Positions 13,407-63,480 of a DNA stretch of 64,000 nucleotides are shown piece after piece. Origin of the DNA: a virus (taxonomy: Duplodnaviria; Heunggongvirae; Uroviricota; Caudoviricetes); IMG/VR virus record IMGVR_UViG_3300029288_000059, positions 225,237-289,236 of that record, one strand, 5' to 3'. The notes under the pieces are model-generated. The model ran no database searches. It saw only the letters and a list, made by a program, of their open reading frames with translations, and was not told where the DNA came from. How positions within the stretch are numbered: position 1 is the first letter of the stretch; every line of letters starts with the position of its first letter. Made by a program: the position numbers and the translations under genes.

Positions 13407-13569
13407 TTTAAAATCTCCTTATTAAGTTATCTACATATATTAAATTATAATAAAATTAACGATATGTCAATAGGGGAATTTATTAAATTATTTTAAAATT
13501 ATACATGGACTTTCAATTAATATATGTTATACTTAACTTATAAACACCATAATAAAGGGGGTAACTCAA

Positions 13570-13830
13570 ATGACAAACGTAAATACGCAAGATAGTATTA
13601 AATTATATAAACAAATTACTAAAATTATCGGTAATACTGCTGATTACCGTAATAAGTATGCCACCTGTGCTACATATAAGTGGTATGCTAAAGGTAAAAG
13701 TAAAAAAGTTGCTAAAAAATTAAAATTTTATATAGATATAGGAGTTGTTAAGATTAACAAAGATTGTATCAATGGATGTAAAAGTATTATTTTACGCGTA
13801 GAACAAGATTTCTACATCAGTAAAAAATAA
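13570..13830 (+). CDS. Small early protein, 86 aa, driven by an early-promoter cassette.
   Basis: A conserved TATACT-TAACTTATAAACA element sits 40 nt upstream. The RBS is AAAGGGGG. Confidence 0.45.
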   Translation: MTNVNTQDSIKLYKQITKIIGNTADYRNKYATCATYKWYAKGKSKKVAKKLKFYIDIGVVKINKDCINGCKSIILRVEQDFYISKK

Positions 13831-13904
13831 TACAAATATAAAATAATGATGAATGGGCATTTAGTATACTCATTCATCATATATAATCTAAATTTTTAAA
13901 TTGG

Positions 13905-14672
13905 TCACAGTTTCCAAATGCGATATTGGTATGGTTCTTTATTGTTAATGCGGCGTGTGGTAATGGCAATGTTGTGACGTCTCAGTAACTTAGTTTGTGC
14001 ATTGTATTTCAACCTGCCTACTATAACATAGGAATCACCGGAATTCATATTTTGTAAAGTATCCAATATTATCTTATTACTAGCCGACCATTTATTCTGT
14101 GTACTGTACACATGATATCCTTTCATGTGTACCACGAGTATATTATGTTCAATTGGGACAATAAACGTATTATTGTCAATTACTTCATCTTTAATATCAG
14201 TTCTTAAGTCTTTAACTTTCCATACTCGAAAATTACCCATATCTAATTTCGTATACGTAATTTTAATATTATTTTTTCGAGTATATACTACAATCCCCAC
14301 CCTGTCCGTATTATTAACAATAATACTATCACCCTCACCCATTTTATTAAATATGTGAATATACTTATTTGGTCTACCTGTACCACGCTTCATTGGTGGG
14401 ATTGGACATTTAGATTCAATCGTTTTCAATAACTGTTCTATTCGTTCCCATTTGTCATATACTGTAATATGTAACCTATTACCTTGCCGTTCATAAGATA
14501 TTTTGTTATAAGTAGAACGCGTAATCGCATATAAACGACGGATTAGTGTTGGTAATTCACTCTCATCATTAAAGATAATATCAAACTCTTTACCAGGAAC
14601 AAATAACTCCATTGGTAATTTCTTTGCATATTCATATTGTACTGGTACTTCCAATAATTCATTAGTCGTCAT
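13905..14672 (-). CDS. Member of the 'RxWK-module' family. It has an N-terminal extra domain plus two modules, and ends YRIWKL.
   Basis: It contains PIPPMKRG...GEGDSIIV...FRVWKV and a second module ending YRIWKL. Confidence 0.5.
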   Translation of the reverse strand: MTTNELLEVPVQYEYAKKLPMELFVPGKEFDIIFNDESELPTLIRRLYAITRSTYNKISYERQGNRLHITVYDKWERIEQLLKTIESKCPIPPMKRGTGRPNKYIHIFNKMGEGDSIIVNNTDRVGIVVYTRKNNIKITYTKLDMGNFRVWKVKDLRTDIKDEVIDNNTFIVPIEHNILVVHMKGYHVYSTQNKWSASNKIILDTLQNMNSGDSYVIVGRLKYNAQTKLLRRHNIAITTRRINNKEPYQYRIWKL

Positions 14673-14923
14673 GTTACGAAAATCCTTATTAATATCTGCT
14701 TACTAAAACTTATAACAGACTACCGTCATAGTCAATATCTAAAATAATCACAACTAAATGGAATAGCATATTATTAAGTTTGAAGATACGTAATATTCAC
14801 TTGTTTGGTAAATATTATGTATCAATCCATCCAGTCACGATTATGTTGTATAGTCGTAATAAAGATGACGACATAAAATATATCGTCATCTTTAATGTCC
14901 CATATATGACTTAGTTAATTAGA

Positions 14924-16078
14924 TTATTCACAAGGACAATAGTCATTAATTAAGTTATTAATGACTGGTAAATTATCAGTATTGAATGTAGAACCAATGG
15001 CAGTTTTAAGCCATTCTGGTTCTATACTTAAGAACTGTCCTGCTGTTTTAACTGGAGTAGATGATACTGTAATCTTAATCTCATACACATTATTACTACA
15101 TTCAATCCCCAATTTACCCATACAATCAACTAATGGTTTATTATAATCCTGTATATAACTAGCAAGATGTCTAATCATGTCATCATCTGTTAAGCCATAA
15201 ACATCTTTTATTGGTTGTACATAATTGTTAATAGATGGAGTATTATCTTGTTGGAATGATTCCTTAAAAGTTGTATAAACTTTTTTATTAGTTAAGGAAT
15301 TGCATTGTTCTCTAATTTGTTTCAACCGTTTTTTACATAATTCACGTAAGAACGTTTTATCACGATTACCACCTAAAAACTTCTTAACTTTAAAGTATTC
15401 TTCCGCCACATCATATAAATGTCTACCTATTGTATCATTTAACGTGCCACTCTCATTTAAATGACGAGTCATTGCTTTCGCAATCATCAAATAATTACAA
15501 GGCATCTTAAAACGTTCTTTACCTTGTTGTATATAGATTTCTTCAATATTACGGGAACGAGCCCCATGTGTTTCTTCTGTAATGGGGATAGTATGTATAA
15601 CAGTTAGTTTGGCATTCTCTAATTCCCATAGTGAGCGTTTCCGTGACTTAGGAATCATAGCTTCCATTAACATCCAATTATTAAGAACTTTATCAAACCC
15701 TTCACTCATTTCCGATTTATCCTTACGAGATATATCTAAGAACTTTTGTTGTGGTGAAGTACGTGAAAATAGTTTAGTTGTAAACTTCAAACCAAATACA
15801 TTTGAGATTAATCTCATACGTTTAATCATATCTAACAACGTACTCTCTTTAATATTAGAAGTCTTATTAAGATACATTAAGACTTCATACTCTTCTGTAT
15901 ATTTCTTAGTTTGTGGGATTCGTATGAGAATATCATTTGGTGTAATATAAAACCAACGTGCATCCTTAGGAGAATATATACCTTTACCGTCCTTATCATA
16001 TAACTTAATACTATTATCAAAGTCTGGTATAGAAGCAATCTCATATAATTGTTCTGCTAGTTGTTCACTTGATGACAT
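14924..16078 (-). CDS. Hypothetical protein, 384 aa, downstream of the large terminase gene.
   Basis: Long ORF with no recognised motif. Confidence 0.45.
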   Translation of the reverse strand: MSSSEQLAEQLYEIASIPDFDNSIKLYDKDGKGIYSPKDARWFYITPNDILIRIPQTKKYTEEYEVLMYLNKTSNIKESTLLDMIKRMRLISNVFGLKFTTKLFSRTSPQQKFLDISRKDKSEMSEGFDKVLNNWMLMEAMIPKSRKRSLWELENAKLTVIHTIPITEETHGARSRNIEEIYIQQGKERFKMPCNYLMIAKAMTRHLNESGTLNDTIGRHLYDVAEEYFKVKKFLGGNRDKTFLRELCKKRLKQIREQCNSLTNKKVYTTFKESFQQDNTPSINNYVQPIKDVYGLTDDDMIRHLASYIQDYNKPLVDCMGKLGIECSNNVYEIKITVSSTPVKTAGQFLSIEPEWLKTAIGSTFNTDNLPVINNLINDYCPCE

Positions 16079-16116
16079 CTCATTATCCTCATTAATAACA
16101 TTTACTATATTTATTG

Positions 16117-62487: not shown

Positions 62488-62706
62488 ATGTTAAACATAC
62501 TATTGTCAATACTAATGTCCATAGTAGCTTTGTATAATGCGGCTTGGGCTACCTATTACATAACGAAATCGTTAGATACTTATGATCTCGATGTCCCATT
62601 GACACATAAAATTGTCCTAAAACGTTTAGGATTTGGATTGTGGTTAGTATCAATAATCGCGTTATCAATAATGAGTATATACATATTGGCATGTCCTATA
62701 ATTTAA
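62488..62706 (+). CDS. Small membrane protein.
   Basis: The RBS is AAGGAGAACGACAATG. Two hydrophobic helices are present. Confidence 0.45.
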   Translation: MLNILLSILMSIVALYNAAWATYYITKSLDTYDLDVPLTHKIVLKRLGFGLWLVSIIALSIMSIYILACPII

Positions 62707-62718
62707 AGGGAGACTGTA

Positions 62719-62955
62719 ATGTTGACTAGTTCAGATGGATGTCCTAACAATATAGGTGGTGATTTACATCATAGTAAATGTTCCAGTTTAGATTGTTTGA
62801 ATGGTATAAAGTTTTGTCCACGGGATGAACTGTTTAATTTGAATTATGAGGTAAGTCCTTTAGATTCTATCATAAACAGGTTGCCTGATTGGTTCGGTGA
62901 ATTCTTAATGGCAATCGGAATGACAATGATGCTCATTGGACTTCTTATGCATTAA
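62719..62955 (+). CDS. Small protein with a C-terminal TM helix.
   Basis: The RBS is AGGGAGACTGTAATG. Confidence 0.4.
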   Translation: MLTSSDGCPNNIGGDLHHSKCSSLDCLNGIKFCPRDELFNLNYEVSPLDSIINRLPDWFGEFLMAIGMTMMLIGLLMH

Positions 62956-63029
62956 ACAAATAACAATATTATAAATATATTGTTATTTATAATATAACAT
63001 ATTAACGTTAAACGAAAGAAGTATATACT

Positions 63030-63425
63030 ATGAACATTACACAAAATAATCTACAACAAGTAAAAGACTTGATAGAACAAGGGAAATCAACTTCCGAAAT
63101 TAGTAAATTAACGGGGTTGTCATCCTCTTCTATTGGACGTATTCGGAGGGGTGAACGTGATTACATTATATCACAACAAACTGTTAAAAAGACTACCAAT
63201 GAATATGTTTCACCTAAAATAGTAACACGTGGTAAAACCGAATTAGATAATGGTACCGTTAAAATAATTACTAATCTAGGTACTGTATATCTTGATAATT
63301 TGGAATTATCAAATGCTGATAAAGCATATTATACGATGTTAGCTAAAAAAGAAGAAGCCGAAATCACTAACTCGGATGAAATAAAAAACTTATATATTGC
63401 GCTTACTAAGTATTTTAATTCGTAA
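63030..63425 (+). CDS. HTH-domain protein, paralog of the 2996..3355 product.
   Basis: STSEISKLTGLSSSSIGRIRRGERDY forms an HTH, and TNLGTV is shared with the paralog. Confidence 0.45.
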   Translation: MNITQNNLQQVKDLIEQGKSTSEISKLTGLSSSSIGRIRRGERDYIISQQTVKKTTNEYVSPKIVTRGKTELDNGTVKIITNLGTVYLDNLELSNADKAYYTMLAKKEEAEITNSDEIKNLYIALTKYFNS

Positions 63426-63445
63426 TATATACATATCAAACAAAT

Positions 63446-63480
63446 AAAAAGTGGGGATAAACATTATCCCCACTTTTTTA
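63446..63480. terminator. Bidirectional terminator (stem GTGGGGATA with its reverse complement TATCCCCAC, loop AACAT) flanked by A and T runs.
   Basis: It lies between convergent genes. Confidence 0.65.

Follow-up and report, generated by a model that had tools for sequence, protein, structure and literature searches.

In a 64-kb stretch of the virus record IMGVR_UViG_3300029288_000059 (the whole stretch is called the window here, and positions are in window coordinates throughout), we found seven copies of one promoter sequence, at 3.8, 13.5, 30.9, 40.9, 42.1, 44.6 and 62.2 kb. The copies stand singly, are scattered over 59 kb and run antisense to their neighbours. They probably form a regulon, of seven members in the DNA seen, of strong early-type promoters for the host polymerase that drive self-contained, moron-like operons of small genes. 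An earlier note on this DNA had reported six copies and assigned them to the promoter-early stem-loop (PeSL) type of mobile cassette. All six were present where it had placed them, and a seventh, at 3846, which reads TTGTTA...TATACTACAATTATAAACA, had been overlooked.

The number and specificity of the copies were examined by several scans of the window. The pattern TTGACA-N15-18-TATACT occurred seven times against 0.17 expected, and the 19-mer TATACTTAAATTATAAACA after the -10 element occurred seven times with up to three mismatches against 0.70 expected, always on the plus strand; none of 100 shuffles reached seven. When a position-weight matrix was used, six sites scored 78-100 and the seventh (3846) scored 6.7, with all other sites below 1. 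An nhmmer profile recovered exactly seven members (E from 1e-10 to 4e-16), and the next match had E = 0.17. The profile found no family members on the minus strand of the window and no degraded copies, including in the intergenic spacers inside the unit of three open reading frames (ORFs) at 42.1 kb. The family is therefore discrete by both the matrix and the profile scans, with seven members and no intermediates.

Promoter P0 (3829-3886, plus strand; nhmmer E = 1.2e-10) reads TTGTTA-N16-TATACT followed by ACAATTATAAACA, and lies in a divergent region beside the minus-strand gene 3418-3771. P1 (13489-13546, plus; E = 1.1e-11) reads TGGACT-N16-TATACT followed by TAACTTATAAACA, and P5 (44615-44672, plus; E = 3.5e-12) reads TTGACT-N16-TATACT followed by TAAATTATAAACC. 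P2 (30909-30966, plus; E = 2.5e-14) stands back-to-back with a perfect minus-strand TTGACA-N17-TATAAT at 30910-30882. At P3 (40903-40962, plus; E = 6.9e-15), P4 (42065-42123, plus; E = 3.9e-16) and P6 (62185-62243, plus; E = 2.1e-14), the minus strand carries AATAAATA, at 40903-40910, 42065-42072 and 62185-62192, respectively.

The layout of a copy consists of an A-rich upstream tract near -46 to -41, a TTGACA-like -35 element, a 16-bp spacer and a 22-nt block, TGTTATACTTAAATTATAAACA, with a Shine-Dalgarno site and ATG next in order. At its downstream end the spacer carries a TRTG/TGn extended -10 motif; the -10 element is an invariant TATACT. After it comes a 13-nt discriminator and initially transcribed stretch, TAAATTATAAACA, which is identical at 13 of 13 positions in four copies. 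The transcription start is predicted at the A seven bases past TATACT, which would give a leader of about 22-27 nt with a strong Shine-Dalgarno site. All seven copies are intergenic, and 29-39 nt separate the end of the -10 element from the ATG, with a strong ribosome-binding site between them. The earlier note had given TTGACA and AAGGAG for every copy; this did not hold at 13506 (TGGACT and GGGGG) and 44632 (TTGACT and AGGAG). Its reading of the copies as promoters ahead of small ORFs was supported: they have the build of strong sigma70/sigmaA-type promoters (A-tract, -35, TRTG/TGn and -10), and the ORFs are mostly orphans.

Conservation was concentrated in the block. Mean pairwise identity, calculated over 20 pairs with the 40922/42083 pair excluded, was 95% in the 22-nt block, 77% in the -35 hexamer, 55% in a 13-nt part of the spacer, 50% in the 22 nt upstream and 33% in the 14 nt of leader following the block. 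The block covers the extended -10 motif, TATACT, the discriminator and about the first seven transcribed bases, all within the footprint of the polymerase. This concentration of identity indicated selection on promoter function. Since the spacers had diverged to 55% outside P3 and P4, most copies would be old and held by selection, that is, old enough for neutral positions to randomise while the block was kept. Only P3 and P4, at 40.9 and 42.1 kb, look like a pair that arose recently, by duplication or recombination, with 95% identity between 40912-40984 and 42073-42145 over 73 nt, the whole spacer included. The near-identity noticed earlier around 40900-40960 and 42063-42122 was thus borne out.

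Each copy lies in a divergent intergenic region beside the start of a minus-strand gene and drives one to four ORFs rightward. Unit C0 (3901-6149, plus strand) has ORFs of 296, 196, 54 and 168 amino acids, of which the 54-residue one was taken from the gene calls of the source assembly; its first two ORFs are paralogs. C1 (13570-13830, plus), C2 (30989-31246, plus) and C3 (40982-41287, plus) each hold one orphan ORF, of 86, 85 and 101 amino acids, respectively. C4 (42143-43216, plus) holds three orphans of 125, 69 and 111 amino acids, with an internal hairpin at 42819-42844 (z = -3.6). C5 (44693-44968, plus) is one 91-residue ORF matching phrog_10980, and C6 (62262-63425, plus) has ORFs of 67, 72, 78 and 131 amino acids. 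The ORFs of the six reported units, which had been put at 67-126 amino acids, therefore range from 67 to 131; the copy at 3846 drives larger ORFs.

Most cassette ORFs matched no Pfam or PHROG family. ORFs 44693-44968 and 62262-62465 are distant paralogs (27% identity), both matching phrog_10980. In the T4-like phages S-PM2 and Cr30, homologs of the former stand among small hypothetical genes arranged in long arrays, which fits early, accessory functions; a word-indexed homolog search with this 91-residue ORF returned only itself. The last ORF of C6 (63030-63425) showed a weak N-terminal helix-turn-helix (HTH) match below the Pfam cut-off and has a TATAAATA motif of its own upstream. Its paralog at 2996-3355 lies beside P0.

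Six of the seven units end in a hairpin at a convergent junction, facing the 3' end of a minus-strand gene. C1 is closed by a hairpin at 13846-13880 (-14.5 kcal/mol, z = -4.1), at the junction with 13905-14672 on the minus strand. C3 is closed at 41328-41372 (z = -4.7, with -26.5 kcal/mol for a folded stretch of 88 nt) by a hairpin that shares sequence with the 3' end of 41349-42032, a convergent, nucleotidyltransferase-like gene on the minus strand. C2, C4, C5 and C6 are closed by GC-rich hairpins at 31254-31288 (z = -6.6), 43222-43256 (z = -5.8), 44967-45003 (z = -6.0) and 63446-63478 (a 15-bp perfect stem; z = -5.3). These four have an A-run before and a T-run after the stem and can therefore terminate transcription in both directions. 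The strong hairpins described earlier were confirmed in all six reported units (z from -4.1 to -6.6); those of C1 and C3 have no such runs. C0 has no terminal hairpin; there is a 4-nt overlap between its last ORF and the convergent gene 6146-6427.

The terminators at 31254-31288 and 43222-43256 are identical, loop included, and the ORFs and outer flanks around them are unrelated. Their identity had been noticed before over 34 nt at 31255-31288 and 43223-43256, and extends to 35 nt. An exact scan of viral contigs with a 27-nt core of this terminator gave no matches. A second case of reused terminator stems in the genome was seen in the terminator-like hairpins 36097-36120 and 56726-56747, which have the common stem ACCCTGTA...TACAGGGT; one of them follows the major capsid gene.

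The genes around the units appear to be under other promoters. The T4-type late motif (A/T)ATAAATA was evident from 19 of 27 ATAAATA occurrences, which preceded a start codon by no more than 90 nt, on the strand of the gene, a zone that makes up 6.9% of the search space. Genes behind ATAAATA include those for the sheath and the tail tube; examples are 50121-53210, 45781-46380, 59873-60703, 49764-50027 and 53334-53831. The late consensus of T4 is TATAAATA (PMC1524935). Late motifs at 40903, 42065, 44561 and 62185 are intergenic and lie on the opposite strand, upstream of cassette promoters. The TATATTTATTAAAATA stretch that the earlier note had called an UP element reads as AATAAATA on the minus strand at 40922, 42083 and 62203, where it resembles a late promoter for the divergent gene and stands 29-87 nt before it. 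Part of the common upstream sequence is therefore probably the late promoter of the divergent neighbour. Minus-strand sigma70-like promoters without the 13-nt downstream block were found at 3421, 30910 (perfect consensus), 39290 and 54852, and the rIIA promoter is also of this kind. Three promoter types are thus present in the window, namely the late type, a plain sigma70 type and the special seven-member class.

We propose that the seven copies are one class of very strong promoters that would be read by unmodified host RNA polymerase of the sigma70/sigmaA type. Each copy would fire a short rightward operon for one to four small proteins, mostly of unknown function, against its leftward neighbours, and in six of the seven units an intrinsic terminator would stop the operon where it meets the 3' end of the leftward gene. 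With their own promoter and a terminator stop at the convergent gene, the units would be self-contained, insulated and moron-like. Their products are most likely proteins for host takeover or accessory tasks, made as soon as the DNA has entered, while the surrounding late genes appear to use T4-type (A/T)ATAAATA promoters. The copies would be alike mainly through selection on promoter function, and not through recent transposition.

Several points weigh against this proposal. The other sigma70-like promoters of the window do without the 13-nt block, which is therefore not needed for host-polymerase promoters generally, and the invariance of the block may have a narrower cause, for instance an operator, a second regulator or a 5' signal in the RNA. 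Promoter strength does not account for the invariant, non-consensus C of TATACT. Some regulatory modules have been copied recently, as the P3/P4 repeat and the identical terminators beside unrelated ORFs show. The sequences, their number, positions and orientation, the stability of the hairpins and the pattern of conservation are observed, whereas that the promoters are active and early, where they start and what the proteins do are predictions from the DNA. The part of the genome covered is 64 kb plus 8.6 kb leftward, out of 272-290 kb.

One alternative is the reading made in the earlier note, that the units are PeSL-like mobile cassettes. Their repeated promoters and terminators would serve as patches of homology at which the recombination machinery of the phage inserts, deletes or swaps the small ORFs, which would be recently exchanged cargo. 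A PeSL is a composite motif in which a stem-loop immediately precedes an AT-rich tract, followed by -35, -10, Shine-Dalgarno site and ATG; such elements occupy hyperplastic regions, between co-directional ORFs, and close relatives show differences that map to them (PMC2839356, PMC4122927). The promoter half of this definition, a repeated sigma70-like promoter with an AT-rich tract, a Shine-Dalgarno site and a start codon, was found in all seven copies. The similarity of P3 and P4 extends over the neutral spacer, and the two form direct repeats that flank 40985-42072 and bound a 1161-bp segment. C2 and C4 have a promoter and a 35-nt terminator in common as their left and right borders, with unrelated ORFs between and unrelated flanks outside. 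The cassette ORFs are mostly orphans, and behind their common promoter C5 and C6 begin with ORFs that are distantly paralogous to each other. With an A-run, GTGGG...CCCAC and a T-run, the stems are similar to those of the nt-1 PeSLs, A3-4G3...C3T3-4 (PMC4122927). The PeSL papers cite earlier work in which less than 50 bp of homology suffices for T4-type recombination (PMC2839356), so that exchange between the repeats is mechanistically plausible.

The stem-loop half of the definition, however, was not found. Folding of the 100 nt that precede each of the seven promoters gave no significant structure and no GC-rich hairpin (z from -2.0 to +1.3); the closing hairpins stand at the far ends of the units, 0.3-1.2 kb downstream of the promoters. 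The feature that defines a PeSL, a stem-loop adjoining the promoter, is thus absent from all seven. Every promoter is in a divergent region and every hairpin at a convergent junction; there is none between tandem ORFs. Horizontal exchange of the ORFs, as had been claimed, was not reflected in their composition: the cassette ORFs have a G+C content (GC) of 0.310 and a third-position GC (GC3) of 0.239, compared with 0.319 and 0.224 in the other genes (Mann-Whitney p = 0.43 and 0.48). A check of the cassette borders for short direct repeats found none beyond chance. Neither the divergence of the spacers outside P3/P4 nor the absence of degraded copies from the nhmmer scan fits recent movement. 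The nucleotidyltransferase-like gene within the 1161-bp segment has a homolog beside the sheath gene in the related contig L086, and is therefore a gene of the lineage and not foreign cargo. We thus consider mobile cassettes of the PeSL kind an unlikely explanation. If recombination at these repeats should be true, PeSL-type shuffling would extend beyond the classical T4-like phages, with promoter and terminator as separate joints.

In another alternative, the copies are a separately regulated class. The 22-nt block, from about -16 to +7, would then bind a phage or host factor, for example a repressor that turns early transcription off or a co-factor that modifies the polymerase, or would act as a 5' RNA signal; its conservation would be due to this interaction and not to promoter strength. 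The block is more conserved (95%) than the -35 element (77%) and includes the non-consensus C in the -10 element, and other sigma70-like promoters of the window lack it. It also has a loose dyad symmetry (TGTTATA / TATAAACA), and a related, nearly perfect 21-bp palindrome, TGTTATAAnTTAAnTTATAACA, lies at 684-704 in the divergent region between 236-628 (minus strand) and 718-885 (plus strand). The two together make an operator for a dimeric regulator possible. The paralogs 63030-63425, at the end of C6, and 2996-3355, beside P0, have weak HTH_7/HTH_23-like N-termini, below the Pfam cut-offs. How early promoters are shut off in T4 is still unknown (PMC2988021).

The symmetry of the block is, however, imperfect, with an extra base in one arm, and the variant copies at 3846 and 13506 alter it without compensating changes. 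The apparent enrichment of -10 elements facing each other was due to the copies themselves and a single other intergenic site. The block also occurs in a promoter context in unrelated phages that have no proteins in common with this one, as described below. We judge a separately regulated class to be improbable, and place it behind PeSL-like mobility. As a separate observation, the palindrome at 684-704, which is similar to the cassette block, reads as an extended -10 on either strand and may represent overlapping divergent promoters or an operator. The downstream part of the block was also considered as the -10 element of a face-to-face minus-strand promoter and rejected, because the enrichment came from the copies themselves and there was no conserved -35.

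When IMG/VR viral contigs were searched for the exact 21-mer, it was found in only one other phage, represented by contigs L001 and L002 (38% GC). In L001 (780-845, identical in L002) the 21-mer stands 17 nt after TTGCAT and 21 nt before an ATG, with GGAG between. A relaxed 17-base pattern gave 105 matches, among which only those in L001, L002 and L135 (37% GC) were accompanied both by a -35-like hexamer and by a start codon with its ribosome-binding site; these three also have TG before and A after the pattern. In L135 the copy lies on the minus strand, near 778-796. The sequence TGTTATACTnAAnTTATAAACA thus occurs once each in L001/L002 and in L135 in a promoter context of -35-like hexamer, A-rich leader, Shine-Dalgarno/GGAG and ATG. 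All matches to the relaxed pattern were single-copy, with no contig having several. An exact scan with the promoter core hit two short unrelated contigs among metagenome contigs and gave three single matches in representative bacterial genomes. About one chance match to the 21-mer is expected from the background rate, so that the argument rests on the context and not on the match alone. L001/L002 and L135 share no proteins with the window or with each other, and their spacers and downstream genes are unrelated. The presence of the block in unrelated phages favours conservation through a constraint of the host transcription and translation machinery over a phage-specific factor, with the exchange of a regulatory module among phages as a less favoured possibility.

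A "split PeSL", in which small gene cassettes would be swapped at two recombination joints, the repeated promoter (73-88 bp) on the left and the repeated terminator (35 bp) on the right, and the TGTTATACTTAAATTATAAACA block, more than a convergence on a strong promoter, would have been passed between phages as a portable regulatory module or as the target of a factor that they share, is the least probable of the explanations considered, and we regard it as very unlikely.

The cassettes had been described as inserted between structural genes. This is the case for the copies at 44632 (tail tube) and 62203 (capsid module) and not for that at 30926, which sits between a 260-residue protein of unclear function and an SPFH/rIIB/rIIA block; the tail fiber gene named in that description was not confirmed. 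In that block (31293-35670, minus strand), the SPFH/Band-7 protein (462 amino acids) is directly downstream of, and co-directional with, rIIB-like (272 amino acids) and rIIA-like (718 amino acids) genes. The gene for the 260-residue protein (30069-30851, minus strand) lies behind the perfect TTGACA-N17-TATAAT promoter at 30910-30882. The label "transposase" that phrog_10081 gives to this gene beside P2 was rejected, having no Pfam or PDB support.

Other repeated features of the window were also observed. The 13506 cassette is flanked by a local paralog cluster of five related genes (11368-14672, minus strand). Four small genes at 6445-7789 (minus strand) have near-identical 5' ends, with 87-nt repeats at 6905, 7204 and 7547. 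About twelve paralogous small proteins made of 21-residue (63-bp) repeats, 37-57% identical among themselves, are spread over 22 kb, at 17966-18758 on the plus strand and at 20718-21194, 24028-24507, 27839-29713, 37404-38329 and 39641-40000 on the minus strand; the two members tested (20718-21194 and 28525-29193) match Pfam LRR_4. At 18773-18990 there is a perfect 109-bp tandem duplication (two 100% copies) across the 3' end of the minus-strand ORF 18914-19282, which may be a recent duplication or an assembly artefact. Two large paralogs, 46527-48044 (plus strand) and 54849-56663 (minus strand), 36% identical over 575 amino acids, match DUF7487 and the PHROG annotation "homing/HNH endonuclease". 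They lie within the structural module, between the capsid, sheath and tube genes, and in L086 no DUF7487-type gene stands between the capsid-side genes and the sheath.

The window has a GC of 31%, and its large proteins are of the T4 superfamily: a 1029-residue tail sheath, the large terminase, rIIA, rIIB and both subunits of topoisomerase II. The gene calls of the source assembly add a Gp23 major capsid protein, a prohead protease and a gp19 tail tube. Identical proteins were found on the ENA metagenome contig ERZ27247363 k141_2513218 (272,293 bp), of which the window is positions 207,705-271,704, and also on a 289,811-bp contig and Logan contigs, all 100% identical and without polymorphism. 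The phage is an uncultured, T4-related jumbo phage of 272-290 kb with T4-like late motifs. The adjoining 8.6 kb on the left and 0.6 kb on the right of the same genome contained no further promoter copies. Rfam and tRNA scans of the window gave no matches. About 1.3-1.6 kb to the left of window position 1 (L095 13600-13840), two tRNA-like genes were seen in a 1.3-kb gene-free gap, one a tRNA-Ser(TGA) and the other with an aberrant anticodon loop.

A near-identity DNA search with 15 kb of the window against 50,697 phage records gave no match. The nearest cultured phages are the jumbo phages Atu_ph07 of Agrobacterium and PA5oct of Pseudomonas, at only 38-46% amino-acid identity. In 5.8 billion proteins, the sheath next in similarity reached 52% identity; with a sheath this distant, the phage has no close sequenced relative. 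For the terminase, the best match had 49% identity. Neither the seven-copy motif nor any repeated promoter was found in the relatives L086, L089 and L090 (sheath identity 46-52%, GC 27-43%). By tblastn of window proteins, gene order was scrambled relative to L006, L086, L089 and L090, and the gene next to the tail tube gene in relatives is 44 kb distant in the window. Nearly all homologs of the 260-residue protein 30069-30851 are from phages of Enterococcus, Bacillus, Staphylococcus, Clostridioides and Fusobacterium, and the TRTG motif is reportedly a feature of Gram-positive sigmaA promoters; together they give a hint, and only a hint, of a Gram-positive host.

If the early regulon is true, the block would provide a search pattern for the early genes of an uncultured jumbo phage and would single out some 15 small ORFs whose products are candidates for host takeover or anti-defence. 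It would also be a further example of a phage promoter class conserved through the discriminator and the first transcribed bases. Neither this outcome nor that of recombination would overturn current views of phage gene regulation.

Compared with known systems, the arrangement shares several features with the PeSLs of RB49/phi1, T4/PST and KVP40/nt-1, namely repeated sigma70-like early promoters with an AT-rich tract, Shine-Dalgarno site and ATG (PMC2839356, PMC4122927). As in PeSLs, small orphan ORFs are served, hairpins are GC-cored with A- and T-run flanks (here in four of six), and repeats are long enough for T4-type recombination, one pair here bounding a 1.16-kb segment. Unlike in PeSLs, the stem-loop stands apart from the promoter and forms no composite motif with it, and the units are isolated and antisense to their neighbours instead of forming tandem arrays in a hyperplastic region.

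T4 early promoters have been described as "uber" promoters that combine UP, -35, TGn and -10 sequences with additional consensus regions (PMC2988021), and novel small ORFs of T4-like phages typically lie behind early promoters (PMC1524935). The copies resemble them in having all canonical elements together, conservation beyond these elements and many copies per genome, and in standing ahead of small unknown ORFs alongside TATAAATA-type late promoters. They differ in the -35 element (TTGACA here, GTTTAC in T4), in the 16-bp spacer with its Gram-positive-style TRTG motif, and in the extra conserved block downstream of the -10 element, with all copies on one strand. This block, with all 13 positions identical in four copies, is far more rigid than any consensus position of T4.

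The host-takeover module of the Bacillus phage SPO1 is said to consist of short operons of small proteins, in each of which a strong early promoter for sigmaA is combined with a strong ribosome-binding site and a terminator. SPO1 is similar in its multiple short operons of small proteins and in being a large, virulent phage of low GC. Its units are clustered in the terminal redundancy, whereas those described here stand singly over 59 kb, opposite to the middle and late genes around them.

Morons of lambdoid phages are reportedly autonomous modules of promoter, ORF(s) and terminator. The likeness lies in the autonomous module between the genes of a larger transcription programme, which is predicted here for six of the seven units. 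Morons are recognised by the adjacency of their flanking genes in relatives and often, not obligatorily, by a deviant composition. Unlike in many morons, the composition of the cassettes is not deviant, and morons usually lack one common promoter sequence such as that of the seven copies. By analogy, the arrangement would work like T4 early promoters, SPO1 host-takeover operons and morons, and would be PeSL-like only in its promoter half and in possible recombination between its repeats.

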